A DNA stretch of 64,000 nt from Monocercomonoides exilis PA203. Lineage: Eukaryota > Protista > Preaxostyla. A program made the translations under genes and the position numbers. Positions 7,301 through 61,169 of the stretch are shown here, one piece after another. Location: the NCBI GenBank assembly GCA_001643675.2, contig LSRY02000015.1:310001-374000 (forward strand), written 5' to 3'. The notes beneath the pieces are model-generated. The model was given only the letters and a program-made list of their open reading frames with translations. It made no database searches and was not told the origin of the DNA. Position 1 is the first letter of the stretch. Every line of letters starts with the position of its first letter.

Positions 7301-10300
7301 TTGCCTGTTGCTGAAGAAACAAATATCGTCTCACTCTGATATTTCACAACCCTCAGCAGAAGATCCTCTTCCCCAACAAACGAGTCTGTTGTGGCACCCC
7401 ATATTGCACGCTCCTTCACAAACGGTGTTCTGAAATCCAAAAGGAATTGCTCATCAACAATTTGTGTTTCGATTGAATGGCATCTCACATACACATCTCT
7501 TCCCCTGAACGCAGAGTTGTCTTTGAATGTGATATTCGACAACACAAAATTCAGAGGCTGTTCAACCACCGAGGTACATTCCAGAAACAGCCACCCGCCT
7601 CTTCCTGTGGTGGAGCAGAAGCACTCAGAAATCGTGCAAAATGAGCAGTCAAACTTTCCTCCCTCATTCAACACACAAAACATCCCTCCTCCCTTTCCAC
7701 ACCTCGTTCCGCCACACTTCTTCATCGTTGTGTTTCGAATCACCATTTTCAATGTCTCGTCATCGTTGTCATTCCGGATGACGGGAATATCATCTGTTGT
7801 ATTTTGGGTGACTTCTTCGAATGAACTCCACTCAATTACAACATCTTGTTCAACTTCATTTTTTCTCTCCCTGAACTCTTTGATATCCTCAATCCGCTTG
7901 CTCTATTCAACTCAATATTCTTCATTGTCAAATTTTTAACATTCAGAATCGTTGAAGATAACACAGAAATAACATCCTTTGAAAAGGATAGTGATTGCAT
8001 TGACACAAATTCCAATACAACCGTCCCTCCATCTGCCTTTATCAACCCAAAATTAGTAATTTGTCCTCTGCTTTCTTCATTTTTTGAGAATGAACAGTCT
8101 TTCAGAGTCAACAATCCTTCACTTGATCCAACATGCATCAAATAATTGACTCCACTTGTGAAGGATGATGGAATAACAAAGTCAATCAGTTCGAAATTGG
8201 CAATTCCAGAAATCTTCATTGCTGCTCCTTCTGCTCCTTCAAGTGATGAGAGACATTCCAAAGAGCATATGTCTGTATTATTTGAGCTTATTGAAAACCC
8301 ACTCACATCAACACTCTTCTGAAGAATCCCCTTCCCAATGATGTTAATATTCTTTTCATTTCCTTCAGGCAATCGATCCAATGAATAATCGATTGATAAA
8401 CAAGGATAATCTGAGAACCCGCAAGTGCAAACATCTTTTCCATCATCTCTGATAAATATCTCTGAGCCAAATGCTCTCCAGAAATAAATCAGTGGAATAG
8501 CATTCACTGTATCATTCCCATCAAACCCTCTCATAGAATCCAACGAAATATCTGACAGATGACCAGACACAAATGGAAGAGAGGTGTTTGTGATGCTCTT
8601 CGTCAAGTCGGATGATTCAACAAACAGATCATTTCCATATTTCGCAACATTTGGTTTGTCTTCCTCAAAAACAGGTGATGAGATCACAAATGAAGAATCA
8701 TCATCAATCAGCTTCAGTGCCATCCCTCCTCCAAAGCCAGTTTTTCCTTCTTCAGCTGGTGCTGTGCATCCTGTGAATGTGCACAAAATAACATTCAATT
8801 GAGTATTCCCTTTCAACTGAGCATTGATTGCCCCTCCTCTGCTTTCATCAGCCAAAACAGAACATTCATCAAAATCACATTCTTCAATATTTATTTCTCC
8901 ATTTGAATCTTCATCATTGCTGTTATCGATGCTCACACAGCCTCCACTTCCTGTTCTTCTTTCTATTTTTGTGAAATTGCACTTCGTCATGTTCAGCCAT
9001 TTGGTACTCATTGAATCGGTATTTGTGCTGCTTCCAGTCAACAAGATCAATGGATTTCCATTCAAAGTGATTGAAGAAGCCGAAAACGATTCAATGGTCA
9101 ATGTCCCAGACTCAACAGATAAGAATAGAAATGTCAATTCAGATAAAGGATTTTGAAGAGAAAGAGAACATTGAGACAAAGTCAGTTGTGAAGATGAAGA
9201 AATAAAAGTTGAATGTGAAAGAGAAGGAGGAATAGAGAAGATAAGTTTTGACAATTTTGTTTCAACACTTGCTGTTATCATCGTTGAATTGGATGTTGAA
9301 CTTGCATCAGAGACTGTCCAGCCACTTTCATCATCATTTCCTTTGATTTCATGTTTCTGTCCAACAAAAGCCAATTCATCGCTCATCAAAATCATTCCAC
9401 TCATAACAATCTTCTTTTCTTCTTCTTGTCTTGTCAAACAATGCTTCAGTGTCAGGCAGGGAAACTCGGAAAATCCACAGAGAGAGTGATTGAATGCATC
9501 AACATTGCTCACAAATATCTCATCTGGCACAGGAATCAGATAAACACACAAAGGAATCGGAATCGTTTCATCACCATTGTCGTATCCTCTCACCTTATCA
9601 AAAGAATCCAAAGAAGCTGTCAGGCATGTTATCTTTCCACTCTTTGCTGTTGACTCCAAGTTGATCGAGTCAACAAAAATGTCACTTCCCCATTTGGCTC
9701 TGTTCCCCTCAAATCCTGATGAAATTTGAAACTCTGCATTTGTGTCTCTCACTTTCAGCCCAACCCCTCCTCCTCTCCCTTGGATGGTTGAGGCATAACA
9801 GTTTTTCACAACACCTCCATTCATTGTCAATGAACCAACATTCCCCATTTCAACCATCATCCCTCCTCCAAACTCAGAGGCTTCACTCCCACACCTATCA
9901 AGTGTGCATCCCTCAAGAGTTATTGAATATGACCCTTCACCCACACTTATCAGCGATGATCCTGCTGTTGTCCTCACAATGTTGTTGAATGTGCAGTTGT
10001 TCAGAGTCAACGAAACTGAAGATCCTTGAGAAAATGAGATCACACTTGTGGTGCTGAATGTTTGTGACAATCTCACATCTTTCATCTTCAAACTTCCCCC
10101 ATCCATCTTCACAAGTGAGTTCTGAATGCTCCTCTCTTCTGAATGATCTGCATCCATCGAAATATTCAATCTCTTCACATCCATCAACCCACTTCCCTGA
10201 ACCTGAAATAATCTGCTTTTTCGATTATTTTCAACTGACGAATTGTGAATCACAAACAGATCACTCACACTCAACTCCCCTGTTCCAACACAAAACAGAC

Positions 10301-12041: not shown

Positions 12042-14035
12042 GAGAATTATTATGGGTCATAATTAACCATATTTCATAAAATTTATAATAATTTTGAACA
12101 CCTTTCAATTTTAATTCTTCCTGTTAACCTTTCATTTGTTAAATTGATGGTCATTCCAATTATTCTATCAAGAGATAATTTTATCATTTAGCTGTAAAAG
12201 ATTGAATTTTTCTTTTTCTCCACTATTGAATCGCTTTAATTTTGTTTTATTCTGTGTGAATGTGGAATGTTAACATCTTGAGGTCATTACCAACAATGTA
12301 TTCTTCAAGGGGAAATTACCTATCCATGAAAAGAAGAATAACAATTAAAAAAGATATTTTTATGAGAAATATTTGAAAATTGAAATTGGAATAAAAAAAG
12401 AACTATATTTTCACAAACTTTAAATGTTCTGAGAGAGGCGTTGATTCGTTTGATAAGTGCATTCAATTTCCATCAATAATTCTTTCATTTCAAAACTGTT
12501 CTTGTTTCGAAAATTTCATTTCGAATTTCTTTAAAAGTTATTTTTTCCTCTTTTCTCTCTTCCTTTTCTTTCATTTTTTCATTCTCTATTTCTAAATCTT
12601 CATTTTTTCTTCTGAGTTGTTTTGTGGAGTCAATTTTTCTCTTCTCACTTTTTTCCATCTTTCTTTTGTCGCTCACATTTCATCTTCAAAGCATTCAGTA
12701 TTTCCTAAAATAACTTCCGAATCATCAATGGTCTTCCTCCAAGCGCAGCGCTAATCTTTCATTTTTATGACTTTTCTTCTTCCAATCCTCCTTCATGATT
12801 CTTTGTTTATGATTGTTTTGCTATATCCTGGAAAACATCTCATTTCGAGCTTTCGTTTCTTTTTTCGCAAAATAGTCATCGTTCATCAATGAATCTTTCG
12901 GTAAATAAAGATTGTCCAACAGCATTGACTCAAATTCTTCATCACTTTTCCTGAAAGTCAAATATCCTTTGGTTTGAAAATCAATAACTTCAAGGCTTTT
13001 CATCAAAAACGATGGAAAGATGAATCAATGAAACAATAAAGAAAATGATAAAATACCTTCAATTTTGTTGGTGAGTCCATTGTTGCCAAAGGATAATTTC
13101 CTTTTCATTCTGTTTTTAAGTCAAAGGCATCATTTGTCATTGCATCCCCTTTTTGCAAGCGAACTTTTTCCATGGATGCAAATCATCATTGAAAAGACAC
13201 TTGAGTCAGAAAATTTATCTGTTTAATCTCCAAAGCGCTTTGGGTCTTTCTCAACAAACGTTGTTTGTTCAAAAAACTCTATAAAACTGAACTGCTAATA
13301 TTTCAGATAAAAATTGAGCCTCTATTAGAAATCAAAAAGGAATATTAAATTCAAAATAAATAAAGACTTTAAAGTCTTTCATGCCTCAAAATCATCCATT
13401 TTCTGCTGATAAAATATATCCGGCAAAGACAAAATAAAACTCTTTAGCATTCAAAGAAGAGCATGCCTAAAATATTTATTTGCGTTATAGAAGCATTTAA
13501 ACGTTCATCTGAGTCATAAGACCAGAAAAAAATAGAAAATATAAAATGCAGGAATAGAAGTTTTATTATGGTCTTCAAATGTTTTTTAATTTTTTTTTGA
13601 ATGTTTAAAATTTCAGAGAAACATCAATGCAAATATAAAAAATGAAAATTTGTATGTCGAAAATAAATTCAATCTTTTTTTAATTAGGGTCATGTTTTAA
13701 TTAGATCCTTATTTTTTTTATTCGATCCTTTCTTTTTGAAATCAATTATTTTGCCACCCACATTTCGATTTATTAATAGTATTTTTGGTATATAAGAAAA
13801 ATATTTGCAACTGAATAAATACATTAAAATGCATAACCTGTTTCTTTTGGGGAGGGAAATGGAGGGGGTTAAAAGCCTCCCGTTGAAATTCTATCAGTTA
13901 CAGGTTGGTTCCAATGAATTAAATTCAAAAAAAATATGAATTTAATATGCAAAAAATAAAATTTCAATGAAAAAAGAAATATATTATTGTCAAATAAATA
14001 AATTGGCTTAATGATCGTTACCAAAATAATAAAAA

Positions 14036-35162: not shown

Positions 35163-35753
35163 GGCCTTTGCGACGGACCGACTTTTATGAAAGGACCTCG
35201 ACAAGTCCACCGACAAGAATGTTTCAAAACTTATGAATTTTTAAATTCAAATTTTATTTAAATGAATATCGTTTTTTTGTAATTCTATCGATATTTTTTT
35301 ATTTATTTCATTTTTTTTCAAATGAACAAATCTTTTATATGGGGCAATATATTTCTCTTCAGGCGTTTTCATTGAAAAGATAAGCACTTTTCTTTGACTT
35401 TTAGAGAACAAAAAACACGATAAAAATGTGTCCATTTTTTGTCATTCGTGAAATGTTGGAAAATATTTTGTTTTGATTTCAACGATGCATGTTTTCTGAT
35501 ATGAAAATCAAATTTATTTTGAAATCTGAGAAAGAAAAATAAAGTTAAGAGAGAAGCAATTTTTCTATGCTTTTTGCAAAAAAAAGCTTGAAAGTTGGTA
35601 TTTTTTACCATATCAACAAATTATTTTTCGAAAATTGATGATTGTGTATTTTTTTATGGGTTATCGACAGATCATTGTCAAGATCTGTCAATCGACAAAG
35701 ATCAGTTAGTCGAAAGGTCTGTCGGTAGAAAAGATCAATCTGTCGTATGTGTC
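35163..35753. mobile_element. Putative MITE with degenerate CGAC-rich terminal inverted repeats flanked by TA
   Basis: The left end ta|GGCCTTTGCGACGGACCGACTTTT...GACCTCGACAA resembles the reverse complement of the right end (ta|GACACATACGACAGATTGATCTTTT...GACCTTTCGACTAA); the interior is AT-rich and non-coding. Confidence 0.4.
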
Positions 35754-37497
35754 TATTTCTTTTGTCATTTATTTTTTTCAAAAATAGTGCTGAATAACGA
35801 TTGTGCAAGGAAAAAATTCATTAATTAAAAATTTATTGGAAAAACAGTTGCATGAATTGTGTCAAATGTGCATTTTGAACAATTGTTACCAGAATGAAAT
35901 AAAAAAACATTTTGTTTCACATATTTTTTTTCTTCTCATTTTTGTTCGCAACATCATTAAAAAGATAAGATTTAGTTGAAATTCCTAAATAATAATTCTT
36001 CAATAGTTTTCAAAACAAGCATCAAATTTTTGTTTATAAAAGGTGAATATGCATAAAAGGTTTAACAAAGATCATTGCTTTTTTGTTATTAAAAATTATG
36101 AACAACGATAGATGTTCGATAGAATTATTTATTCTGCTGATGAAGATATAACATTTTCCGGCGAGATATAATCTAGTTGACAGACGAGTTGAGCAAAAAT
36201 GCAAACAGTATATGAAAAGCTCACTATTTCTAATTATTTTAAAATTATTGTTACTTGGCGAAACTTCGTCTGTCATGTTCAGTTTTAAAAATGCGAAAAA
36301 TAAAAAAATAATGGGTGAGATCATTGATTTCATTTGCGTTTGTCCGTTTCTCCACATATGGGAAATTTTTTTTGAGATGATAATCTCGTTCAATGTTTGA
36401 TCTTTTTTTGAATCTTTGTGGGACAACTTTTTAAACGCATTGGAAATTAATTAATATGATAAAACATCATTTTCTGTAATATTTTTAATACGCAAATTTG
36501 GATTGATTCAATTTTCGAAAATAACCATAATTGTTCGTATGTAAAGCATTTTCTTTTTTGCTGAGTATTATTCGGTCGTGCAAACTTTTTGATGTTCGAA
36601 AAATATAAATTTTCAATCTTTAATAAGTTTCATTTTCTTAAAATATATAATTGTTCATGAACACACATGAATGGAAGCTTTTCATTCTTTTCAAATTTTT
36701 TTAAGATTTCTCGAGATAAGCAATATAGCAACGACAACAAGCATAGAAGATCGGAAGAAGAATTAGAAGTTTCCACAGGTGTTGCATGCTGGATATGGTT
36801 TTGTTTTTGATTTTTGATGATTTGAACTTTTTTGTATCGTATTATTTTCCTTCTTTTCATTTGTCTTTTATTTCATTCAGCATTTTACATACAATATATA
36901 TTTCAATCATTCTGTTTGAAACAAATAGCTTTGATCTTTGTAATGATTTAATTTTTGTTTTTTATTGAAAATTCATAAATTTATTTTTTTCCCGTGACAT
37001 TCAATGACTTAGTTAATGAAAGATTGAAAAATTTGAAGCCGAAAAGAATGAATGAATCTTTCGAACAATTTTAAGGGGATGTCGTTTTTTTTTAATTGAA
37101 GTTTAAAGGAAAAAAAAATATGAAGAAAAAAAAACAAGATTAAGGAAAAGATGAGAGAAGAAAGTATTAAATGAAAGATGCTTGAGGTTTAATAGTTGAA
37201 TTCACAAACATATGGAAATAGAATAGCTGCATAAAAAGAAGATAATAGGAAAGAAGTTGAAAGGAAAAAAGATAAAGAGAGAAGAAAAAGAAAGAAGAAT
37301 AAGAAAAGAGAGAAAAAAAAAGAAAAGAGAGAGAGAAAAAAATAAAGAGAGAAGGAAAAGAAGGTTGAAGCAAAAAGAAGAAGTGGAGAGAAGAAGAAGA
37401 AGAAGAAGAAGAAGAAAGAGGAAGAGCAGGATTTGTGGAAGAAGAGACATTAGCGAAGACATTTTGAGTTGAACACAAAGAAAATCTTCCATTTGTT

Positions 37498-39626: not shown

Positions 39627-42600
39627 ATGTTCACAACTCCTGAATCAACATTATCAACGAGAGCATGCAGTGCGTGGAATGAATTAAAAAGAATTGGTGG
39701 AGACAAAGTTGATGAGCTTTTATTATTTTTATTAACAAAGAACAAAGCAGCTGCTGATGTGGCAAATACAATTCGTCAACAATTAAATGGTAATTGTCAA
39801 TTGATTTCAAGTGAACTATTACCGATTTTTAACTGTGTTTTTTTGGTTTTTTTGTTTTCAATGTTTCACTTTGAATTATCAGAGTCTCTGAACACACTGA
39901 TGAATGATCTGGCTGTTGTTTACAATGCCTCACAAAAACACACACAGACAATGATTTTGCAAGCCGTTGCTCGTGATTATACACTGAAAAAACTTCAAAA
40001 TTTTGGCTTCGGTATATCAAGAGGACAGCACAGTTACGCTTAAAAAACTTTGCAAAAAAACAATGATCAAATTATACCTCCCCAAAAACCAACACTTCCA
40101 ATGTGCAAGCGTGGTTTGAATATATATTCTGTGTTTCTTTTATGAAGATAATAATTCAATTTTAAAAGGACTTGAAGAAGATGCTTGGCACAAAGGAAAC
40201 ACGTGGATGATTAATCATTCAACCGAAATGTTTGCATCGATGATTTGCAATCAAAAATCCTCAAAGCACTTAGAAGAAGAACAGTTTTTGGATGAATCTG
40301 CCTGGGATGATTTGATTTGCATATCATCAAATGACAAAAGACAGGAACAACCAAATAAAATAGGAGAAGAGTTATCAATAAAGTATCAGAGAATTCCTTC
40401 AAATGAAGCATCCGACTTTCAATCTCATTTTGACGATCGTTCAATATCAGCTGATTGCGAAACTGAACACGACTCTGCTGGATTTCGAAAAAAGAAAATT
40501 CATTTTTTGAGAGAAAATACAGAAACATCATCAAAAGTGATTCAAGGGAAAATATTCATGACAAACAGAGCAAATAATTCTCCCACATTTATTGCTGATT
40601 CAATTATTGAGAAAGCAAATATCGATTGCGAAAATAATAGAAACATTCCGTTTCAAACTCGTTCTGAAAAAAACTCATTGTCTCCACCAATAATTCCTCC
40701 TTATTGTCTAACTCACTTTATTGATTCTTTGGATCAGAGACAAGAAGCCAATGAATCATGTCTGACAACATTGATGAAAACAGCTGACAATTCAAACGCT
40801 AGCTTTCATGCAACATCAGAGACATGTCCTGTTAATGAATTTCATTCAAATATAAGGGTGAGCAAGAAATCCTGTTTAGGAAATTTAGCAATCCAAATGA
40901 ATTTGCCATCGATTGAGAAAAGAACAGATCAAAGTCACATGGAAAATCCTGATCGAGAAGATTTGACACATATTAATGAAGAAAGCGTGGAACTCAATTC
41001 TCAACCAAATAAAAAGGACAACAGCAAAAACCAATATGATTCAAAATGTCAAACAATAATTCGCATTCACAATCCACAAACAAAAAAGTTATCAGAAAGA
41101 AAGGGATTAATAAATTTAGGAAATACATGTTATTTATCATCGTTATTGCAAAGCTTTTCTTCTATCATATCTATAAATCCTTCAATGATCAAAGAACCGA
41201 ATTGCAAGACGTGTCTTTTAAAAATGTTGTTGGATGTTTGCTCTCAAATTCAAGGAAATTCAAATTATGTGAAGGAATGGAAGCCAGTCCTAATTGATGA
41301 ATGGGAGTCATTCTGTGGTTTCGGAAAAAGAAAACAACATAATGTTTCAGAATCATATGATTTTCTGATGAAACGGCTCATAAAAGACAATGCATTTCGT
41401 TAGGACAATATTAATATTACCACTTCCAACCACACAAAATGCAAATTTTGTGTATTTTCTTCAATTATTGTAAGCACTTCCAACAATATAATCATCAATT
41501 CAAATTCAGTGGAAAGAGGGCTGAAGAAATATTTATCGAAGGAACAGCTTTCAAAAAACAATTCAGTTTTATGTGGCAAATGCGGAAAACTTAATGAAGC
41601 GATAAAATGAACAGAGATTCGTGATTATCCACAATTATTAACAATTGAACACGAATGTTCATCCATGAAGCTATCAATTCCACCAAAACAATTATTCTTT
41701 TTTGTCAAAAATCATCACAGAACATTTGCAACTACTTCAATTGAATTTCCAAACTCGAAATCTTCAGCTCAACTTCAAACAAAAAGAAGTTATTCTTTAA
41801 TTGGACAAATTTTATTCAGGCAAACTGATCAATTTCATGGACATTATATTTCATTTGTCAGAGATTCTTGCATTGATAAAGAATCCTGGTTCATTTGCAA
41901 TGATGCTTTCGTTTCAAAAGTCAATGCTCAAAGTTGGAAACAAGCATGGGAAAATTTATTTAAAGAAGGATATATACCATCATTATCATTTTACATTGAA
42001 GATAACACAAATAATAGAAAAAATTCAATTCAAAAAGGAGGAGCACTTTCATATGTTCAACTATATGAAAAGCAAAGCAAAAAAACTGTTAACCAAAATG
42101 CACTTGAAGGAGCTATGTTAAGAGCTAACAATGACGAAGCATTTTCAATATCCTCATCAAACTTCAACAATAATTTCCCATTAAAACGGAATCAAAAATC
42201 AACTCGAATTTTTTCGCCAAATGAAAAAATACTTATTTTCAAGCCGAAATCAAGACTATGGAAAGAATTTCAGGAAGAGACAAACATTAAGTTATCACTT
42301 TCTTATTTCTACAAACTTACGACACAGTTTTATCGAGCAAAAAAGAGAACTGATGTATGTGAAATGTGTGAAAAACTTGATCATTTGGAAAGAAAATTGA
42401 GGTCTGTTCCTTTTTCAAAAAGAAGCAAATCGGATATGAAAAATTTTTCAATTTTGAAAATGCACAAAACATACGCGGAATGGCAACGAAAAAATTTTCA
42501 AGAAACAGTTCATGATTTGAAGGAGAATGAAGTGATATTGCTGTTTGATTTCAAAGAAAAATGGAAATTGCCGATCAGATTTCACCAGCTTCAGCAAGAA

Positions 42601-43491
42601 TATTATGATTACAAACAATTATCACATTTCACAGTGATTTCTATTCAAAAACAAAATGATCAGTATATAAAAAAAACTTTCAACTTTCTATCAGAATGCC
42701 TATCAAATGATTTTCGATTTGTAATAGAGTGTTAGCAATCGGTTTTGAAAAGATCATTCTACAAAAACTCTTCGACTTTCAAATTTTTCTGTGATTCCGG
42801 TCCTCATAACCGGAATCGCTTTGTGCTTCACTTTCTATTGCGAAGCAAATCTTCTTTTCTGAAAGGGAAAAAATGTGAAGTGAATTATTTCACAGAACAT
42901 CACGGAAAGAATCTTTGTGATGGTGAATTCGGTGTTCTGGTCAACTCGGTTAATAATTTCCTTTCTGATGAGAATGTTTTATCATTGCAGGATTTAATTT
43001 CTTTTTTCAAAAAGCATGTTGAATCTCATACAGTTTCACAAGTCCCTATTTCACAAAGGCAAAACCAATCAACTTCAACAAATATTTCTTCATCAGAGAA
43101 TTCTCAACTTGAATTATCAGTGAACGACAGATATTTTGAAGAATATATTTCATCACAACAGAAAGTTTGGCCTTCTTTTGTCATTCCACACATGAAAGAT
43201 TTCTTGTTTTTTGAAAGCGAGAATAATCATGTATTCGGATCTGCAGTCGGCTATTCTCCACAGCGCTGTTTAATTGATCTTCAAGGAACAATAAAGAATG
43301 AAACAGTTTTGAATGAAAGAAAAACATGTTCAAAGCAGCAAAACTCACAAAATGTCATCAATGTTCCACAATCTTCAATTGAAATGATTTGCAGACGTAA
43401 CAGACTTTTGCGCAATTCATTAACATTTGATTTCTGTAATTGTCCCATATGGGTGATTTTTTTTGATATCATAAAAAATTCCGACGTTTGA
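39627..43491 (+). pseudogene. USP-deubiquitinase / Sola-like DDD transposase fusion, copy 1 (four in-frame stops)
   Basis: Exons 39627-39789, 39883-40110 and 40169-43491. USP Cys box GLINLGNTCYLSSLLQ, His box GHYISFV and WFICND. Transposase LFDFKEKW, FFCDSGPHNRN and EHHGKNLCDGEFG. Stops at 40041, 41401, 41608 and 42733 align with K, K, W and L of copy 2. Confidence 0.85.
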
Positions 43492-45519
43492 TCATAAAAA
43501 ATTATCATTAAGGGTGAGGTTGAAAAGATTAATTTTATTTGTAATTGCATGAAATTAAAGTTTAATTAATAATAATTATTATTTATATGTTGATTTTAAC
43601 TTGATTTTTATAGCTTTTATTACAAAATTTGAAAAAAAACATTTAAAAATTTTTGAAAATATCGACAATTCAATAAACACAACAAAACATTTTTTTAATC
43701 GTTAATATAACATGAAAACAACAATAACAATATATTATCAATCATTTTTTTATATAAAAACTTGTTTAATGAGTTATAACAAAGAAATTTTTATAATTGA
43801 ATTGAAGATCTTAGAACTTTAGTTGAAAACAATCAATTTTTAAAAGCACACATAAAAAAATATAATAGTTAAACTAGATATTCATCAGATATACAAATAT
43901 TTGCTGTTTATTTTTCTATAAAAGCAAATAATACTTTGAAGAAGTTATTAAAATAAATTGATTAAAGTTTTTTTAAAAAATTACAAAAAAATATTTCAAA
44001 AAATGAAAAGTAATACGAGAATTTCTGCTTTTTATTCTTAAAAAGCTCGCAACTTTTATGATCTCATCTTTTTCATCCTCTACTCTTCTTTTTGGCATTG
44101 CCTCAGTTGCTCGGCGAACATTCCACTCAACTATTTTTCTGAATATGCTTCTCTGTGTAATTTCTTTTTCTTCGCAAATCACTTTGAAAGCTGCACAGAT
44201 ATATCACTAAGATTCATAGAATTCTTCAACAGCCATGCTTGGCTCAGTTTCAACGTTGATTTGAGGATGCATGGGTTCTTTTTGAAAGTGAAGAGGATGT
44301 TTTTTGGGCTGATAACAATCAGATCTTGGAGGCTGATGCTGTGCAAGTTCGAAACACTGGGCGAAGTGGAGAGCATAATGTTTTCACAGATCAAGTGCAC
44401 CGGGTGTGTGATTGTGGGTGGGGAGAAGGGGAGCGGAGACGGTAGATGTGTAAAGATCGCAGCGAGGCCAGAGGAGGTTAGCGAGGCCAGGCACAGACAC
44501 ATGGATTGAGCAGCTGGGTGTTCTTGGGGGAGGTTGATGCATCCAGGCAGTTGACCCCTCGAGCACGTGGTGTTGGCGGTGGTAGATGCAGTCCATTTCA
44601 ACTGAAACATGCCCAGCGCCGACCTCCTCCTTTCATTTTCAACCTCCACTTCGCCTCCCACTCCTCCCACCGACCCCAACCTCGATGTCGACCTCCTCCC
44701 CTTCATCACTTTTTTCCGCTCCTACTAGATAATCTTCAACCAGGACACTGGCTTTTCTGCTCGCCAGGTCAGCTTCCTGCTTGACCCCTGCATCTCCCTT
44801 TCCACTGTTGTACTCTGCATCTGCCGCTCAATAGAAAACTCCCTCTGGATCAGCCCACTCTTCCCTCTTCTCCCTCCTCGACGGATAACTAGCTGTGTCC
44901 TCCTTCCTCTTTTCCGCGGCTGACCAGCTCGTCCGCCTCATCAAACCCCTCAATTGTTCTTGACGAGAAATCCTTCGCCTCTCCAACATAACTGTCCATT
45001 CCCTCCCCCCTCACCTGCCCTGCTCATCATGCTCTCTCCACTTCCTCCCTCTTTCCATCCCATGCCAACCTCTCCGCCCTCAGTGCTGCCTCGCCTGTGC
45101 TCCTATTCGACGATGACATCAGCAACTTTATTGAGTATCTCATCACCACAAATCTCTTCATCGGAGGTTTCAGCGTTGTAATTCTCATCTCACTGTGTTG
45201 AATCACTCAATAAGCTCCTTCACTATGATGCGTTCCATCTTCACTACCATCTCGCTCGACAAGCTCTGTTGGAGTGTGCATACCGACAACTTCCAGCTCA
45301 CCAGCAAAAGCCATTCCATTTGTATATTTTCCCACACCACCAACTGCAACCTCGTCTACTCCAACTCCAGTGCACTCAATATCGCCTCGTTCAAATGAGG
45401 AGGTGGCGGCATCCTTCCAGGCACCTCTTGGTGGCTCCTCAACTGTTGATTCACTCGGCGCTGAATTCACAATCATCTCTCTCCTCTGCCTTTCGTATCG
45501 ATGCTTTCAGGCTTTCGTG

Positions 45520-49927: not shown

Positions 49928-50780
49928 CACTTCGACTGTCAACTCTCGGCACGCTATGTTTCAGCTTATCACCAACCAAATGGACGCACACCAACGCCGC
50001 ACCATCTGTTTTCTGCTCGCAATTCTGAGACTAGCATATTCAACAGACTCGTCTGCTTCGTCAAAATAAGCCATGTGAGAATGTTTTCTGTATCTGAATC
50101 AGAGAAAAAATAAAATAAAATTATGAAATGGCCTTAAAATTATAATTATTAAGTTCAAAATTAATTTTAAAAAAAAATGAAGATTTAATTAGATAGATTG
50201 AACAAAATAACCTTTCTAATTTTCTATTCTGCCCCTTTCTATTCTCATTCCTTTATCTCTCCTCCTTCTTTAGTTCTCATTCGTTTAATTTCTCTGCAGT
50301 TCTGTTTCTGCAACAAATATCTCCCTTTCGCTGCATAAGACATGAGCATTCTTTTGCCTTTCTTGCTCTTCCGCTGCTGTCTCCAGCCGACAAACAATTG
50401 AATTCCCCGTCTCATTGCGTTTGTAACTTAGCGCTGTGAAAGCACTTTCACATTAAAAATATGCCACTGCTTCAATAATAGCTGCAACTCACCAAGAAAA
50501 TGAATGAATGAATGATGTTTCATTCGTCTTGTTGGTGCACGAGCAGCAGAGTGAACTTAATCAGTGCCAGAGAATATGTTCGGTTGAAAGCAGAATCTGA
50601 TGAAATCTTTGATTTTTTAAAAACCATTTCTCATAAAAGCCGCAACGCAAGATAAATACAGGCCAACAGTATAAGAATCAGATATTACTGACAAACAAAT
50701 ATAAAATAAAAAGATTTTGATTATATTTTGACATATTTTTTAAAAAAAGTGGAAAATAAAAAATATATTTGAGAAATAAT

Positions 50781-51257
50781 AATATTACTTCAAACATTAA
50801 AAAATAGAAAGTTTAAGCAAGCTGGTTAAAAGTTGGAAAAGCAAGTGGTTTTGAAAAAATGAAAGAAACAAAACTCCAGCTTTAATCAGAACCATATCTT
50901 TTTGAATTCTTGAGTGTTAATCGTAAAAAAACAAATATCAGAAAAAAAAATTGAAATGTACATTTTGTTGTTGTGCGTGCAATAAGAGTTAGCAAACGAT
51001 TTTTTTCAGATTTTAAAACGCCGTATTCGAAGAACAAAAGCTCTGTTTCTTCGTCCAATCAATGAAAATGACTGAAATGACAGAATCCTCAGGGGTCTTT
51101 TTTTTGCATAAAATGATTGCTTTCACAATTTTAACTTCATCTATTGCCAAAAAACTGCATTCTTCTACCTGCAATTTTCGCCCTTTACAGCTTATTTTTT
51201 TGATCTTTTTTTCGCAAAAAAAATAAAATAAAGGGTTGGATCCTTTTTTTCATTCAA
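50781..51257 (-). repeat. Left inverted-repeat arm (pairs with 58804-59259 and 56144-56341)
   Basis: The reverse complement of 50844-51236 reads the same as 58804-59196, with a degenerate extension to 50781/59259; 51060-51257 pairs with 56144-56341. Confidence 0.95.
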
Positions 51258-51919
51258 ATCTGTCGTTAATTACATGTCATATTTATTTATTTTTCATGCA
51301 TTGCTGAATGATTTAATGAATGATTGTTTCAAAAATGTGTTTATTTTATGTTATTGAGTTTTGCTGAAAATCATAGAAAAATGAGTGAAATGAAAGAAAA
51401 TACGTTTAAAAATAACAATTGTTCACCAATCAAAATGACATAAAAAAACAAAAAGTACTTCATGATATTAATCATTAGAAAAATAGAAAACAATCAGAAT
51501 ATTTTTGATCAGATTCAATAACTTTCAAAAAAACATAATTCTATCACTTAATCATAAAACTATCTCCAAATGTCAACTAAATATCAACAATTTTGAACAA
51601 TGAAAAATATAAGAAGAAATAGCACTATTTCAACAAATTCATGGAATCAAAGACAATTCCTAACAAAAAAGAATACTTATATAAAAAGTTCAAAAACTAA
51701 CTTGTCTATTTTCCCTTTGTTTTCCATCCACTCTCCACTTTCTGATATTTCTCTCACTTTGACTCTAAAAGATCAAATCCAACAAAGAAAAAAGACAGAC
51801 ACAATGATAAAACAACATTTCACACTCTCGTCAACTCTCCCTTCCAAAAACCTCACACAAAGATCAATGAATTCCCTCACAACTCTCTCTATTAATGAAT
51901 CTCGATATATACAAATATA

Positions 51920-51963
51920 ATAGGGACAATAACCAATTTAATAATAGGGACATTATAGGGACA
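51920..51963 (+). repeat. Three ATAGGGACA direct repeats
   Basis: Copies at 51920, 51944 and 51955; a related AGGGACA at ~52137. Confidence 0.85.
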
Positions 51964-51988
51964 AAAAGCACAAGAAAACAATCGGATT

Positions 51989-52126
51989 CTAACTGTTGTG
52001 CACCTAGGAGGCTGTTCGTCGTATCCAGGTCCGGATATTGCAGCCCAAAAACTGCAATATCTAATACGAACAGTCATGTCCAGCACCCTTCCGATAGAGT
52101 GCCAGCTAAGCATACACAACAACTAG
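51989..52126 (-). ncRNA. Putative structured RNA (multi-stem) immediately 3' of the USP-transposase stop codon
   Basis: Hand-folded on the minus strand: outer stem CUAGUUGUUGUGUA/UGCACAACAGUUAG, CUUAG/CUAGG, hairpin GCACUCU/AGGGUGC, CUGUUCGU/ACGAACAG and GAUAUUGCAG/CUGCAAUAUC. The non-Watson-Crick pairs within these stems are G-U only in this orientation. Confidence 0.6.
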
Positions 52127-52130
52127 TTTC

Positions 52131-55100
52131 TTAAAAAGGGACACCATTAATACAATTTTGAGATTCATTAATAGAAGAAGAGTCAAGAAGAAGCTCAAAT
52201 CTCCTTGAAAGAAGATCTTGAGAAGATTGAGAAAGAAGAGAAGAGTTAGATGATGTGATATCAGAGTGAAATGACTTTCTTGATCTTTGGACTTTTTCTT
52301 TCATTGTTGAAGATTCGAGGGCAACCAGAGAGCGTTGAGGAAGATATCCAACAGCTGAAGCACAGACAAATGAGCCTTTGCGCTCAAAATACAAATAGTC
52401 TTTCATGTGAGGTATTGAAAGTGATGGCCATGAGATTTGTTGAGATGGTACATATTCTTCAAAGTACCTCTCATGTTCAAAGCTATTGACAGATGTTGAA
52501 GATGGTGAAGAGTTTGATGATGATGTTGGGAAAATGTTTGATTGTGAAGTTGAAGAAGCTGATGTCGAAGTGTTCATATTGTTTTCGAAGAAGTTGATCA
52601 AATCATGAAGTGTGGTGATGTGTTCTGTCGAAAGATTGTTGTCGATTGCATTCACTAACGCACCAAATTCACTGTCACAGATATTTTTTCCATGGTGCTC
52701 AGCAAAGAAATTGAGTTGAGTGTTTTTCTTTTTTAGAAGTTTTGATTGTTTTGAGAGGATGAAGTGAAGAAGGAAGCGATTTCGGTTGTGTGGACCCGAA
52801 TCGCAGAAGAACTTAAAGGTGTGAGTGTCTGAGAAGAAGTGTCTTTTGATCACAGATTCCAGACACTCAATAACAAATCTGTGATCATTTGAGAGGCAGT
52901 CGGAGAAGAAGTTGAAAGTTCGTTTTATTTGTTGATTATTAATTTTTTGAAGAGAGATGATTGTGAATTGAGAAACCTGTTGATAGTTGAAGAATTCTTG
53001 TTGAAGTTGATTTTTTCGGATAGGGAGTTTCCATTTTTCTTTAAAGTCGAAGACGAAGACTGCTTCTCCCTCTTTCAAATTATCAACAGTTGATTGATAA
53101 TGTTTTCGTTGCATTTCTGCAACAAGACGATGTTGTCGAAGAAGTTTGAGTGTATGAAATTCGGCAGAAGAAAGTCCATTTTTATTTTGTGAAGACTTCA
53201 GTTTGTTTTCGAGATAGTTGAGTTTCTCGCACATTCCACAAAGATCTGTGCGTCTTTTCGCTTTGGAAAAGTTGGTAGTGAGTTTGTAGAAATGTGACAG
53301 AGAAACTTTGATGTTTGTTTCTTCTGTAAACTCACTCCATAATTTTGTTTTGGGCTTGAAGATTAATCTCTTTTCATTGGGAGAAAAGATGCCCGTTTTC
53401 TTTCTTTTATCTTTCAAAGCTTCCAATCCATAACTTGTTGAAATTGACGAAGAAAGTGGAAGAATGAAAGTTGAACGATGAGGTGGAGTGATGAATGGAG
53501 ACGATGATGATGATGTAGTCGTTGTTGTTGTGTTATTTGAAGTGTTTAAATTTGAAGTTTCTGAAGAAGATGATGAACCACCAAATTGAAGAGTTGACAG
53601 TGTTGGCTTTGTTTTTTCTTTTGAGTAGAAAGAAAGGGAAGGAGTGTAACCCTGGGAGTAAAGATCTTTCCATGAAGAACTCCATTTACCACTATCGAAT
53701 TCAGTCACTTCAGCATCATTGCAAATACTCCAAAAACTGTTGATACCACTCTTCCTTTTCACCACAGCTATATAATGTCCATTTCTTTGATCCAGACGTT
53801 TGTATAGTATTTGTCCAGAAAGATGATAAATAATCGTTTCCTTATTGCTCTCTTGAAGATGTTGAATGTTTTCTGTTGAAAACCCTTTGCAGAAAGTGCG
53901 CTGGTTAACACGATCTGTTTCAATCAGAAGCGTTCTCGAAGGAGCAGAACTAGTAGCATCAGTGCATTCATGACAGAGGGCTAGCACCTCTGGAAATGCA
54001 GCCATTTCCTCCCATCGAGCAGCACAGCATTTCTCTTCACATTCATCGCAATAAACATTGTTCTTTCCGTTCAATATCTCAGTAGAAAAGAGAGAAGATA
54101 GACCTTTATGAGGAGAAGATGAATTAATAACTACATTGTTGACAATTTCATTGAAACGTGATGAAATTTTTTGGCATTTTTGGCATTTGAAATGAGTGAT
54201 TAAAACAGGATTGAAGGTGTCCTTATTTATCAACTCATCTTTTTGAAGAAGTTGGTGAAGATTGTCAAATGCCTCAGCCACGTTTTGCTGCTGTCTGCTT
54301 CCATAGTTGCAGAAATCTTCCCATTTGTCAATAAGAGATGGGACCCATGAACGCACTGCCGTTCCATCTTTAGCCAGTTGTTGACAAACACTTATAACAC
54401 GCGAAGATGTGTTCTTCAAAGATGTTTGTTTTTTGAATAAAGATGGTTTTTGAATAGTTATTGAAGAGAAACATTGAAGAAGAGAAGCCAAATAGCATGT
54501 GTTGCCTAAGTTTGGCAATCCTTTTGTTATTTGTGATGTTTTGCTTGAAGAGTTTAATGAATTTGAAGAAGATTGAGAATGAGAAGAATTTTTTGTTGAA
54601 TTTTCTTTGGCATTCTTTTTTGAAATATTTTTTGAAGAATTATTTTGTGGAGATATTTCTTTATTTGAAGATTGAATGCTTTGTTGTTGAACTGTTGAAG
54701 TGTCATTCTCTTTAGAAAATGAAGAAAAGAGAGTTTGAAATGCTTGAGGTGGAATTAATGTGGGTGAAGTGGCATAATCAACTAATTGCTCACTCACAAA
54801 CACATTATCATTATGAAATGATGAAGAATTTATTTTTTCTTTCAATTTTTTTGTAATTGAAATTTGTGAAGAAGAAGTTTTTGATTTGAATATTTTGTGA
54901 ATTGGTATTGGAGATGGAGAAGAGTGACGTTTGTGATTTGAATTTTTATTTTGATTTTTTGTTGAACCCCTTTCTCTCCTTATTGGAGTACTGATAGGGG
55001 CATCAACGGCTTGAGATGGAGAAGAATTTGTTGAAGAAGAATTTTCATGTGAAATGGTTTCAGATTTTTTGTTGAGTTGAGATGATGTTGAAGAAGAAGA

Positions 55101-55838
55101 AGATTGTTTTTTATTTGAAGAAGAATTTTCCGTAATTATTTCTTCATCCCAAGCTGCTTCGTCAATATATCTGGCGTAATCTGGCTCAGCTCGCTGCTTT
55201 TTCTTTGCTGACTGAAGAGAAGTTGAGGCTTCAGTCGAATGGGCTAACATCCAGTTGTTGCCCTTTTCCCAGTCCTGTTCATTTAATCCTTAGAAAACAA
55301 TGAAAATAAATAAAAAAAAATTTTTGATAAAAACAAACAACTTTTGCAAGACGGAATGTGAGGTTTCTGAGGCGGAATGATAAATCCTTGGTTTTTTTTT
55401 AGCGTTTGCTTCGCGTAAATAAATTTTCCCTCTGTGACATCATATCCATAGTCCTGTAAATCGGACAATGATGTGTTGCGGGACAGCGCTTGTAGCATTG
55501 TTGTCTGAGTGTGCAACGGAGCGTTGTTGTACACCACAGACAGGTCTTCCAGCAGCTTCATGTGATATTCTGTTTTAAAAAAAAATAATTAATCAACAAA
55601 TCAAAAAGAAAAAAATCACAGAAAGGAAAAAATAATATTTTCTACACAATACAAAAAAATAAAAAACCAAACCATTCAAAGACTTCAGTAAATCATTTAT
55701 TACTGAAGATGATTGCCTGTAAGTGTAAAACAAATAGGCAAGCAACGAATCCACGTCATTTCCGCCTATTCGCTTTATTTCTTGCCATAGAACATTGCAT
55801 CGAGAATTTAATGTCGATTCGCGTTTAGAAAACGACAT
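52131..55838 (-). CDS. Intact USP-deubiquitinase / Sola2-like DDD transposase fusion, copy 2 (~1180 aa, 3 exons)
   Basis: Exons 55838-55673, 55569-55342 and 55288-52131 splice in frame (GT-AG). USP: GLPNLGNTCYLASLLQ, QQNVAE, CQKC...CDEC, GHYIAVV, CND. Transposase: KRLIF...LWSEF...VSLSHFYKL, CGMC, VFDFKEK, CDSGPHNRN, EHHGKNICDSEFG. Confidence 0.9.
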
Positions 55839-56143: not shown

Positions 56144-56341
56144 TTGAATGAAAAAAAAAATCCAACCCTTTATTTTATTTTTTTTGCGAAAAAAAGATCA
56201 AAAAAATAAGCTGTAAAGGGCGAAAATTGCAGGTAGAAGAATGCAGTTTTTTGGCAATAGATGAAGTTAAAATTGTGAAAGCAATCATTTTATGCAAAAA
56301 AAAGACCCCTGAGGATTCTGTCATTTCAGTCATTTTCATTG
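56144..56341 (+). repeat. Internal ~200-bp copy of the repeat arm, located between the divergent genes
   Basis: Inverted relative to 51060-51257 and direct relative to 58804-58979. Confidence 0.95.
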
Positions 56342-56491
56342 TTTCATTGAAAAATTCTCGTTTTTGATTATCACATTTTCTCGATAAATAATAAGATTTT
56401 GAACTTTATTTTAAAAACATAGATCATAATTAATTTTAAGATTAATAGTTTTATTTTATTTTATTTTAAAAATTATATCAATGAAAATCTG

Positions 56492-58389
56492 ATGTGTCCC
56501 ATTCATCGGAATTCTTCAATGTCTTGTCAGAAGTTGTCTTACTCTCGATCTTCTCGGATTCATTCAAGCTTGCGGAAAAGCAGTATCATGAATGATGTTG
56601 ATTCATTATCAAACTTTTTTGGACAAATGTCGATTGATCATGCGAATAAAGTGCTCTTTGAGTTTTTTTGCAAATCTTCAAACGGAAATATTTTTCTGAA
56701 TAATCTAATGAAAAATTTTGGATGTTTGTTTCTTGTTTTATTTTTTGTTTCTTTGTTTTTGTTTTATTTAACATTTAATTTCTTTATTATTATTTTTTTT
56801 TTTATATTTTTTATATTCATTTAAAAATAAGCACCATTACACAAAATCGTACAGAAGATGAAGCTCCCTTTCAATGAATCGAACCCGCATATCCAAGAAA
56901 AAATGCTGCTGTGCCTGACTGAATGGTTTTCACAACAAGAACTTGAGCAGGATTTTTCTTACAGAATCAAATGCATTGGAGATAATATGATGGAGTGTGA
57001 AAAAGAAAAATCGACAAATTTGACATTACGGAAGCCGTCTTCAACTTCATGTTGCAGTGTCATTTCTTCAGACGAAGATGAGGCTGCTGATCAAATGTAT
57101 GAAGAAGAAGAAAGTGATGAGGAAGAGTCAGAGAGTGATGAAGATTTTATGAAAAGAAAAGAAAAGAAATGCAATGATATTAAAGGAGGAAAGATGGAAA
57201 TAGAACTCGAGGTTTGTTTTTTTTTATTTTTTTTGAACTTGCCTGATTCATTTTGACAGGCAAATCAATAATTTTTTGATAAATTTTTTTGTGTGTTGTT
57301 CAGAAGCGACAGACACCAATTGAAGCTTTAGGAAATCCTTTTTCCATTTTATCAACAGTTCCTCAGATTGGAAGTTTTTTTCAATTTCCTCCTTCTTTGC
57401 TATTCCCGACTCGACCTTGTGCAAAAGAATCTCGCTCATATGTTCAAGTGTTGTGTGATTGTGGAAGGGAATTGTTCAATTTTGGAGCGTCGTGTGCCTT
57501 GGCATCAGTTTGCCAGTGTTTGGCTTCATTTGGGGTGACTTGCGACGTCAAAAGGAAGCGTGGAGGGGCATTTATTTTTGGAAGACTGTTCAGAGCAATC
57601 CGTTCATACAGCGTGACCAGTAAAATCTGGGGAACGAAATCATTCAAATCATTCATCGAAAGAAATGGTGGGAGCATTACTGATCCAATGGGAATTACAA
57701 CAGCTTATAATTCTGTTTTGAACAGTGCAGCAACGGAGGGGTGCAATATCAAGAAGGATTTCACTGTGAAGCAGTCATCATTCAAATTGTGTGGGAGTTG
57801 CAATCATGTTCGTGTTCACAATCAGTGCCCTTCACTGTATGTGGCAATTCATCATCCATCAATAATTGAGGGGCTGAATCAATATTTAACAGCGACGGAG
57901 CAAACGGTTGATAAAGAATTTTGTATTGATTCTTACTGTGGGAGGAGAACAGTTTTTTGGCAATGGAATCAAATAGACAGATTTCCCAAGATTCTTTCCA
58001 TCTATCACAGTTTTAAAGATCATTGTCCATTAATTCCGCCTCCAAAAACTATAACTTTCAACGGAAATGGATCGACTCCAAAATCAATGGTGGTGAAACC
58101 TGGCTCAGCGAAACAACAGACATATGATTCGTTCAACTTTCCTCAGACAGAGTTTTCCTTCATTGGTTATATCCTTCATTCTATGAAGCCTTTGCCTATT
58201 GGACATTTTATTGCAGTTGTCGTTGATGGAATAGATGAATCAACTGGGGAGCTAAGACTGTTGGAGTGCAACGATGGACTAGTCTCACGTGTGAATTCGA
58301 AGTTCTTCGATGCATATTGGAAAGCGATGGCAAATGAAGGATGGAGCGGAGCAATGTGCTTTTGCAGAATAAACCAAACGATTGAATAA
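56492..58389 (+). CDS. Stand-alone USP-like cysteine protease sharing the N-terminal domain of the fusion transposase (3 exons, ~565 aa)
   Basis: Exons 56492-56723, 56832-57211 and 57304-58389 splice in frame. Cys box LFNFGASCALASVCQCL, CGSC...CIDSYC, FPKILSIYH, GHFIAVV and ECNDG. FNESNPHIQEKMLLCL...ELEQDFSY resembles YNNAPLHTQTTMLQAL...DLQDYGY of copy 2. Confidence 0.75.
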
Positions 58390-58803
58390 TTTGTTATTTA
58401 TTTATTTTTATTTTTTTTTTTTATTTGAAGTTCTCTTTTTTATTTGTTTCTCTCTTTTTTAACATTTCAGTTAATTTTCATTTTTTTTTATTTTTGTTTC
58501 CTTTTCAATGAAGTTCTCAAAAAACCAAATTTTTTTGACTCTAATTTTTTTTCATTTGATATTATTCTTCTGAAATAAAAAATTGTTTGAAATCTTAGAA
58601 AATTGAAGGAAAAAAATAAAAAATAAACAAAATACAAGAAACTCAAAAAAACAGACTTTTGATTAAAGTAAACATTTTCATTATAAACATCTGATAACTC
58701 TTCACAAATCAAATTATTAACAATAACATTGCATAATATATTAAAAAAATAACAAATCATCAAGTATGAATATTCATTAATTTCAATGAATTTGAAGATC
58801 ATG

Positions 58804-59259
58804 CCCTTTATTTTATTTTTTTTGCGAAAAAAAGATCAAAAAAATAAGCTGTAAAGGGCGAAAATTGCAGGTAGAAGAATGCAGTTTTTTGGCAATAGAT
58901 GAAGTTAAAATTGTGAAAGCAATCATTTTATGCAAAAAAAAGACCCCTGAGGATTCTGTCATTTCAGTCATTTTCATTGATTGGACGAAGAAACAGAGCT
59001 TTTGTTCTTCGAATACGGCGTTTTAAAATCTGAAAAAAATCGTTTGCTAACTCTTATTGCACGCACAACAACAAAATGTACATTTCAATTTTTTTTTCTG
59101 ATATTTGTTTTTTTACGATTAACACTCAAGAATTCAAAAAGATATGGTTCTGATTAAAGCTGGAGTTTTGTTTCTTTCATTTTTTCAAAACCACTTTCTT
59201 TTCGAACTTTTTACAGGTTTGTTTTAAACTTTCTATTTTGTAATATTTATGATAATATT
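58804..59259 (+). repeat. Right inverted-repeat arm (pairs with 50781-51236)
   Basis: Reads as the reverse complement of the left arm over ~390 bp, then becomes degenerate. Confidence 0.95.
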
Positions 59260-61169
59260 ACAGTTTTTTCATTATGTTGGAAAACTGCTCAGTTTGCTTC
59301 CTTTTCAAAGAAAAGGAACCTTGCTTATTGATCATTTGACAAATCTTCTCGTTGGCGAGCATCATAATGAGAAAGGAGCAGATTATTATATAGTCATTGG
59401 GAATCAAATAAAGTTACGGAAGATACATGATATTTGGTGCAAGAGATGAAAACAAATTTGGCTGATGTTTCATTGAATGAAGACAAAAGAGGATGGAATT
59501 CTGTGAAGGACAAAATCTGCACAATATTATATAGCATTTTGGAATGTTAGGCAGGGAGAGCAGTTTGGGGTATTTTTTTTGGCAAGGAAAGTGGCTGGCA
59601 ATATCAAGGGAAGGATATTTATCACAAAAAAGGCAACAATTCATTGGAAAAAAGAAGAACCCTAAAATATAGGTTATATTTAAAAGGTTTTCCTGTTGCT
59701 CAGACTGGGAAGACAGACATGGAAAGCGACGAAATTCTATTTCTGATTCCGCAATTGCTTCAAAAGAGTGGAGAACAGCCAACAACGAGACATTCAATTA
59801 TTGAATACTTTTCGGACATCAAACAATTTTTTGACCAGCTGCATCTGAATTCTGCTCTGAAACAATTTTTTAATTTTTGCGAACCACAAGCTTGACATTG
59901 ATAATTTGGTGTTTCTGTTTGCCAAACATTCATTTGACCATCAAATGCATCTTCTCTTGCAATTCCTCCTCCTCTTCTTTTTCCTGGATATCTGTGTCTT
60001 CTCCGTTGCGTGCCAATCTCTTCAAGGGTAATCTCGAACTGAACAACCTGGCGAATGCGAATTCTCAACTCTTTTCAATTGCGGCAGGTGCATGTAATCA
60101 GAGCACATTCAGCATGCTTCTCATCAACTATCACTCTTCTTTCACCATTCCTTATCTCTGCCTTCTCACATTTTTCCCTTCGCTGATTGCAAGATCCTCC
60201 TCTTTGTGTTCTTCCAGCTTGCCTCGATGCAGCTATTTCCTCTTCATTTTGTGAATGTGTTCACAAGCAGAGTTTTGTTGCAGCTCATTGGGAAGAGTGA
60301 GAAGTGTGAATGAGAGAGAGGGAGGGAGGGAAAAGAATAAAGGAAGGAAGTTGATCAGGGAGGTGGTTTTTGGATTTGATAATTAGGATGCCACCGTAGA
60401 AGAAGAGGAAGAGAAGAAAGAAAATTGAATCGATGATGATTAATTTGTTTCAATTCAAAACACTGGGACTGAAGCATTCAAAGGCATGAATTAATATATT
60501 TACAATTTTTTTTTTATTATTTTCTTTTGATTTTTGTGTGAAATAATGTGTATCCTCTTTTTTTAGTCTTGATGGAAGCCCGACGAATAGAAACATTTGT
60601 GCACACTTCTGCCTCTTCTTCGACTTCTTCGTTTGTGTTCTCTACAGGGATAGTCATTGGGACAGACGACATAGCACAGCTAAAGGCACTACCACAGGAA
60701 GATATACCGACTGATGTTGGGCTGCAGATGTGTGGAACATGGGAGCGGAGTATGTGCGCGTCCCTGGTTGTGAAGCATGTGTTCCAGCCGCTGTCGATGC
60801 AACTGAATGCGCCAGCAGGAATAATGATATCTTCGTTTGTTGCAGTGGTGCTGATGGTGCGCGTATGTGGAGAGGCGCTGCACCCTGCAGCACCTGGTCA
60901 ATTCCATTACGCAACGATCTTTTGAGCGCATGGGGTTGCAGAGTATCTGGAGGCAGTGACGCACATAATATTGGCTGATCTATTTTTTGGTGAAGGTGAT
61001 GTTGATGCCAAATGTTGTGCTGTCATGTGATCTGTCTGTGATGGCGGCGTATTTCGTGGTGGGGAAGGGGGGAATCACCTGAAAGAGAAGCTGATGAAGT
61101 TCAGTGGTATCTGTCCATTGCGATTCCACTACTGAAAAGAGCATATTGTGGAGATGATGATAATGGAGA

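Follow-up and report, generated by a model that had tools for sequence, protein, structure and literature searches.

A probable structured RNA element behind the transposase stop codon of a Sola2 transposon in Monocercomonoides exilis

A 138-nucleotide fold directly behind a transposase stop codon in Monocercomonoides exilis is a real, family-conserved feature of a Sola2 transposon and probably a structured RNA element that has not been described before. We judge it likely that the fold is an RNA-level structure under selection. By analogy with known RNA elements, we tentatively propose that this family-conserved part of the Sola2 element acts in cis, in the 3'UTR, on the stability or translation of transposase mRNA. 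Eukaryotic cut-and-paste transposons are usually viewed as systems of a protein and its DNA ends, and the descriptions we found of structured RNAs in them concern two kinds, ENEs that bind poly(A) and the guide RNAs of Fanzor. If the proposal is right, the fold, which is neither of these, would add a new point at which RNA controls the expression of a transposase, and would do so in a lineage whose members elsewhere have captured Fanzor.

The fold and its place behind the transposase gene

The window is the whole 64,000-nucleotide stretch of DNA analyzed here. Its transposase ORF (52131-55289, minus strand) ends with a TAA stop at 52133-52131, and the fold follows after a 4-nucleotide spacer. 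Specifically, pairing begins at 52126, five nucleotides past the TAA, which agrees with an initial annotation of this DNA that placed a fold on the transposase sense strand, 5 nucleotides past the stop. The same annotation described a GC-richer island in AT-rich DNA; the GC content is 48% in the 138-nucleotide fold versus 27-36% in the flanks. The predicted parts of the fold are these:

51989..52126, minus strand: branched RNA fold as a whole (predicted), with an outer three-way junction of P1, P2 and P3 and an inner arm of P4 with or without P5
52112..52126, minus strand: 5' arm of the closing stem P1, paired to 51989-52003 over 15 bp in the majority version
51989..52003, minus strand: 3' arm of P1, from folding
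52080..52105, minus strand: hairpin P2, 10 bp with 3 G-U pairs, loop AUCGGA at 52095-52090
52012..52073, minus strand: arm P3, which encloses P4 and P5 and has 8 Watson-Crick bp between 52066-52073 and 52012-52019
52040..52055, minus strand: apical hairpin P4, 6 bp; in most copies a C-G pair closes its UUCG loop
52022..52037, minus strand: alternative hairpin P5, 6 bp
51981..51986, minus strand: UCCGAU, a perfect complement of the P2 loop, 2 nucleotides past P1, a predicted pseudoknot candidate

As minus-strand RNA, the region has a minimum free energy of -54.4 kcal/mol and a z-score of -4.71, with 0 of 200 shuffles as good and with 10 G-U pairs among the 51 pairs of the structure. The plus strand, folded as RNA, reaches -42.0 and z -3.65. 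With DNA parameters, the fold drops to -24.6 and -21.7 kcal/mol on the two strands. The initial annotation had proposed a shuffle test of both strands, and its outcome is mixed: the minus strand stands out from its shuffles, but the plus strand also folds well and other windows do equally well. For that background, 2778 windows were folded and ranked by their residual after correction for composition, and the top 40 were then shuffled; 7 of the 40 show z <= -4.7, so the z-score of the fold is not exceptional and proves little alone. The transposase ORF itself contains windows with z -3.3 to -4.3. Other strong folds (z -4.3 to -6.5) lie at 53260-53406 (minus), 13847-13984 (minus), 35559-35788 and 55615-55752 (plus).

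The architecture drawn in the initial annotation stands in outline, with changed counts. The closing stem is present, with 13 + 6 bp in the window copy where 14 + 5 had been given; its first 13 bp include 3 G-U pairs, and its 5' arm carries no variant at 2% or above. The side hairpin, P2, is present too, although it has 10 bp, 7 of them Watson-Crick pairs, instead of 7 bp in all, and a minor variant at 52103 converts a G-U pair into A-U. The long arm comprises 8 bp and 12 bp, with the perfect 10-bp Watson-Crick core in the window copy. That perfect hairpin, however, is peculiar to the window copy and one subfamily, and most copies possess a 6-bp stem on a UUCG loop, then UU/UU. In the window copy, P4 has a UUUG loop and two U-G pairs; where the RNA has AA at 52038-39, P4 is extended to 52034-52061. 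P5 has a pair probability of about 0.5 in the majority version versus 0.1 in the window copy. Finally, the G-U pairs that read as A-C mismatches on the plus strand exist, at a count of 3 + 3 + 2 + 1 in P1, P2, P4 and P5 against the earlier estimate of about seven.

The pairing of the P2 loop with UCCGAU has a chance probability of about 0.008 for 40 sites and was noticed post hoc. In the model, it would probably require opening of the G-U-rich base of P1.

Conservation of the fold among copies

Variation among copies was read from Logan contigs of six public runs, out of 15 candidates, placed on the window, from which Logan drops rare variants. Runs X1-X3 represent one sample, and X5 and X6 come from two other studies. 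Between 51975 and 52140, contigs of other copies vary at 2% or above at 10 of 166 positions. The window copy departs from the majority at six (52006, 52038, 52039, 52047, 52050 and 52051), and minor variants occur at four (52048, 52057, 52103 and 52108). In X2, 7 of the 166 positions vary at 5% or above versus 291 of 2835 in the surrounding stretch (Fisher p 0.010). Unpaired positions account for 7 of the 10 variable sites and for 48 of the 138 positions overall (binomial p 0.025), a tally that leans towards the model because the structure was predicted from majority letters. At the stem sites 52050, 52051 and 52103, the variants only exchange a G-U pair for a Watson-Crick pair or the reverse when read on the minus strand, whereas on the plus strand each exchange involves a mismatch. 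The contigs show no double compensatory changes, because the copies are too similar to give one. The variation among copies favors the sense strand and is in this respect consistent with the initial annotation, which had preferred an RNA structure to a DNA palindrome.

Conservation rises sharply at the stop codon. Specifically, contigs fork at 52134 into another ORF end, which differs at 6 of 30 nucleotides and encodes the CSFGVPY terminus of paralog P0003. The majority version of the sequence folds to -53.0 with z -4.7 (plus strand, -45.2 and z -3.7) and has a P1 of 15 bp, P2 of 10, P3 of 8 and P4 of 6 (cUUCGg), followed either by P5 or by an extension of P4 across UU/UU. Mean pair probabilities of P1-P4 are 0.86-1.0 in the three versions tested, and seven G-U pairs in P1, P2 and P5 occur both in the window copy and in the majority version. 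Folding of the plus strand is good in all versions too, with z -3.0 to -4.4. In the unchanged window, cUUCGg matches 14 times but never on a 6-bp stem; the best stem has 5 bp.

The fold is part of the element and no chance insertion, which the initial annotation had named as a way for its reading to fail. At most 0-5% of the contigs on the fold continue into unlike sequence. Contig depth over the fold is as deep as over the ORF, and no contig joints skip the fold (both for 50600-53600). Contigs bridge the fold and the ORF end (X2 record 14, 52033-52139), others join the fold to downstream DNA (X1 record 4, X2 record 14), and cover by other copies extends downstream to about 51400, more than 500 nucleotides past the fold. 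An independently inserted small repeat, such as a MITE, a Helitron end or a SINE, is rejected on the grounds that neither varied flanks nor copies without the fold appear among the contigs.

One X2 contig over the apical hairpin has a depth of 5292, and many others have about 80-120; the high value suggests tens of identical copies, with the proviso that summed depth is not copy number. The majority letters recur, at the covered sites, in single low-depth contigs of X5 and X6. The 3' UU reads AA in about 28% of the depth in X1 and X3. Six X1 contigs carry the apical loop inverted, a sign either of hairpin events in the DNA or of an effect of the assembly graph. In the RNA run X13, one contig of depth 4.4 overlaps 52107-52140, or 34 nucleotides of the stretch 51975-52140; it shows neither strand nor ends, and the library may contain DNA.

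The Sola2 transposase and the flanks of its gene

The gene and the features that flank the fold are as follows:

52131..55289, minus strand: last exon of the Sola2-type transposase, with a USP/UCH domain at amino acids 257-535 and a DDD core
DFKE 53048, CDSG 52805, HHGKNICD 52697, minus strand: motifs of the DDD core, aligned with PPa-1
55334..55838 (55674-55838 and 55334-55570), minus strand: earlier exons of this gene, identified by comparison with paralog P0003
52160-52175 / 51888-51903 (span 51888..52175): perfect 16-bp inverted repeat, E 0.004, extendable to about 23 bp
51923..51963, minus strand: three TGTCCC repeats directly downstream of the fold, with a fourth at 52138-52143 and one at 43441 in copy 1
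51340..51346, minus strand: first AAAUAA/AAUAAA signal 3' of the stop, about 785 nucleotides from it, with copy cover falling nearby

The initial annotation had pointed to reports of Fanzors in Sola elements; this link and the assignment of the transposase to Sola2 are both borne out by homology to the PPa-1 transposase of a Fanzor-carrying element. The window protein is a DDD transposase with Sola2 motifs, its DFKE, CDSG and HHGKNICD align with those of PPa-1, and it is 28% identical to the PPa-1 protein (E 7e-24). A Heterostelium (Polysphondylium) protein, P0049, one of ten relatives looked up, matches the PPa-1 sequence of PMC3627910 additional file 10. Across 47 aligned sequences, D167, H203, K205 and D209 are invariant. 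According to part of PMC3627910, PPa-1 and DFa-2 are amoebozoan Sola2 elements with Fanzor1 in their variable 3' halves; they share with the window element a DFKE / D / HGK..CD triad and a TD.C..C motif. The window element differs from them in its N-terminal USP (UCH) fusion, its RNA fold and the absence of a Fanzor ORF. The homology to PPa-1 together with the motifs makes the element Sola2-type and related to the Fanzor-carrying group.

The UCH/USP domain in the transposase ORF is recognized at E 1.7e-14, and the Cys (GNTCY) and His (GHYIA) boxes of the fused domain look intact. In M. exilis, four paralogs are 93-96% identical to it and another seven are partial; Blattamonas, a related oxymonad, has a homolog as well (P0112), and a profile search returns 3204 relatives at E <= 0.001. 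No longer fused homologs occur among 7077 candidates, which is weak evidence, and we found no description of a USP-fused Sola transposase in the open-access literature. Copy 1, at 40120-43491 (plus), contains the same USP-transposase fusion (39628-43491), but broken by in-frame stops, and has 44% amino acid identity with the window copy. No equivalent fold was found behind copy 1, just as first reported. A stand-alone UCH-like gene at 57283-58389 (plus) adjoins copy 2. In both copies, a hairpin can form across the codons of the second catalytic motif, DSGPHNRN (52775-52810, minus; 42790-42820, plus), and may reflect only codon constraint.

The 16-bp inverted repeat encloses the last codons, the stop and the fold, and it may represent either a long-range helix in the RNA or a feature of the DNA. 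The TGTCCC repeats are possible transposase-binding sites. Sola2 elements end in terminal inverted repeats (TIR) flanked by a 4-bp AT-rich target duplication (TSD); a scan for element ends turned up no credible pair of this kind for copy 1 or the window copy, and the long inverted repeats at 51057-51257/56144-56344 and 50780-51259/58780-59260 show no matching TSD by eye. A repeat present in three copies that are 95-99% identical (50780-51259, 56144-56344 and 58780-59260) brackets the transposase and UCH genes; these copies may be the element's own ends or neighboring elements. In the contigs, 50947-51168 is apparently absent from other copies. Outside the bracketing repeats lies a 387-nucleotide GC-rich inverted repeat (49547-49933/61175-61561) with 98% identity.

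Possible roles of the fold, and distant loci

Comparison with known RNA classes yields likenesses and no match. A search of Rfam 15 with the window copy's sequence, a check that had been suggested at the outset, found 0 families at the gathering score in the window and 3 matches at E <= 10 in 51600-52400, all outside the fold. Likewise, we found no description of the fold, or of a Sola2 3' RNA, in the open-access literature. The initial annotation drew an analogy to omega-RNAs (fRNAs). The likeness is that, in a DNA transposon of a eukaryote, a conserved structured sequence begins close to or directly at the stop of an ORF, and that the transposase has its relatives in Sola2 elements that carry Fanzor. 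The analogy fails on other counts. The upstream ORF encodes a USP-DDD transposase, not a RuvC nuclease of the Fanzor/TnpB kind, and 15 stop-masked frames of the flanks (50599-52130, 43400-44103 and 58400-60201) hold 0 matches to TnpB or Fanzor, so that the initial remark that no Fanzor ORF is visible extends to remnants. Omega-RNAs, in the sections of PMC10432273 and PMC10530073 drawn on here, span or abut the right end of the element and have a variable guide. Here, no right end abuts the fold and no variable guide stands behind it; conserved DNA runs hundreds of bases downstream, so the geometry fails.

The ENE and dENE elements provide a closer analogy. Parts of PMC13541005 and PMC12501189 place ENEs behind the genes of transposons, among them the gene for the hAT transposase of TWIFB1. 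Like the ENE/dENE elements of Evade and hAT TWIFB1, the fold is a structured element directly behind an ORF, presumably acting in cis, and by analogy it may have a role in stability. It is nonetheless no ENE: it lacks the U-rich, poly(A)-binding internal loop, offering only a 2 x 2 UU/UU in a minority conformer, and it is instead a branched junction that bears a UUCG cap and a candidate pseudoknot and that belongs to a metamonad's Sola2 element. Viral xrRNAs, as portrayed in part of the literature on them, likewise combine a compact fold behind a stop with a junction and a pairing of a loop with the 3' tail. They differ in that P1 of the window fold is much longer (15 bp), that the first, not the last, hairpin loop pairs downstream, and that the window fold has no Rfam match and resides in a cellular transposon, not a virus.

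Other classes were tried and rejected. A SECIS element has a core of tandem G-A pairs from which a helix of 11-12 bp rises to an A-rich apical loop; here, AUGA precedes P3, but the opposite strand has no GA, P3 has 8 bp, and Rfam reports no SECIS. The plus strand of the fold bears a short likeness to what we take to be an SRP RNA helix motif, yet the apical pairs do not form and no Rfam SRP match exists. An intron in the variable last codons was examined by hand, and plausible splice phases hit a stop within 5 codons. Pol III box matches near the fold are weak by eye. M. exilis does possess Sec machinery, according to part of PMC6759080.

The reading we lean towards, that of a cis-acting 3'UTR element, draws its mechanism from position and analogy. 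The poly(A) signals of M. exilis are AAAUAA/AAUAAA and its 3'UTRs average 312 nucleotides, as given in part of PMC8767320. With the first such signal about 785 nucleotides from the stop, the fold would head a long 3'UTR, and the transposase mRNA would run about 0.8 kb past the stop. Behind the terminating ribosome, the element would fold into P1-P2-P3-P4, with P5 variable, and the pseudoknot between the P2 loop and the 3' tail might lock it. The notion is that the compact fold, or a protein on it, could shield the long-tailed message from decay and so set transposase output. Such a mode of working would be akin to that of the ENE/dENE stability elements, with a different fold. NMD-protective elements such as RSE are also compact folds right behind a stop codon.

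Several rival explanations bear on the same observations. That the fold is a DNA-level or neutral feature, a subterminal quasi-palindrome without RNA function that is kept by recent amplification, transposase binding or template switching, we regard as unlikely. It would suit the good folding of both strands, the similar z-scores of other windows, the nearby perfect inverted repeat and TGTCCC repeats, the inverted apical loop of some contigs, and the UU/AA switch at 52038-39, which perfects the palindrome. It does not suit the G-U pairs kept in P1, P2 and P5, the stem variants tolerated on the minus strand only, the weak DNA folding, the cUUCGg cap, or a fold more conserved than the adjoining coding sequence that amplified along with it. 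Doubtful to a greater degree is a small RNA in its own right, either processed out of the mRNA or remaining as an xrRNA-like exonuclease-block product, that binds the Sola2 transposase or acts as an orphaned scaffold for a Fanzor encoded elsewhere. The compact closed fold with its pseudoknot candidate would fit such a product, as would the homology to PPa-1, from a family with Fanzor1 in its variable 3' part (per part of PMC3627910), and the Fanzor-less "ghost" omega-RNA loci mentioned in part of PMC10432273. Nevertheless, the flanks hold no Fanzor remnant, copies have their downstream DNA in common for more than 500 nucleotides, and no stand-alone copies of the fold are seen among the contigs. 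In a further and distinctly improbable version, the transposase of this Fanzor-associated Sola2 lineage would encode its own RNA cofactor, either a pseudoknotted scaffold bound to the transposase or an orphaned omega-type scaffold that the transposase has taken over, and this RNA would regulate or direct transposition.

Three further readings are less probable again. We think it very unlikely that an undescribed self-cleaving ribozyme or processing signal makes the 3' end of the mRNA, an idea to which the nested junctions, the pseudoknot candidate, the conserved single-stranded linkers and the absence of a poly(A) signal near the stop lend themselves. Retrotransposons, unlike DNA transposons, need ribozyme end-processing; moreover, no Rfam family lies over the fold at E <= 10, and by eye the junctions contain no known catalytic core. 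The spacing of the fold behind the stop is typical of recoding stimulators, and in the window copy a slippery heptamer, C CCU UUU, immediately precedes the stop. Stop readthrough or a -1 frameshift that extends the transposase C-terminus nevertheless strikes us as barely credible, since the heptamer is lost from other copies, which end VPY, VHF or VHY, and the -1 frame stops after a few codons, at 52125-52123; readthrough adds 18 residues, then UGA, and 8 of 10 variants change the residue in that frame. Least probable of all is that conservation stems from a 73-codon ORF at 52113-51892 (minus) overlapping the fold. Shuffling yields such an open frame in 3% of cases, and 6 of the 10 variants leave its residues unchanged (single-frame p 0.077), but a plus-strand frame also gives 6 of 10. 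In addition, one variant creates a stop, the codon score falls below 98% of coding pieces, and the ORF is absent from the protein collection, has no Pfam match and reaches a best Atlas score of 0.78. For the favored 3'UTR element and its rivals alike, the many genomic copies provide a natural mutational series, and long-read transcript data of M. exilis exist (noted in part of PMC8767320).

Searches for more distant loci returned 3 from 546 metagenome candidates, 1 of 114 from genome contigs, and 0 of 134 and 0 of 4 from viral contigs; exact scans for the fold pattern in the genome and viral contig collections gave 0 matches. Loci L001-L004 have no sequence in common with the fold, and L002 and L004 stop short of usable 3' flank. 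About 380 nucleotides past the stop of the L001 transposase (28% identity), a perfect 17-bp inverted repeat is crossed by a 9-bp one. These crossed repeats (5671-5797) have z -5.7 on both strands and no G-U asymmetry; they hint at most at a pseudoknot-like structure or a DNA repeat, unrelated to the window fold. Positions 1-2250 of L004 encode a transposase closely related to that of L001; the contig bears the title of a bacterial MAG but is probably mis-binned eukaryotic DNA. Farther along L001, a 1.4-kb stretch (5811-7204) has 19-bp terminal and about 350-bp internal inverted repeats. Finally, an ORF that starts within 7800-8756 (plus) of L001 has Walker A/B-like motifs by eye and is a possible D5-type primase-helicase.
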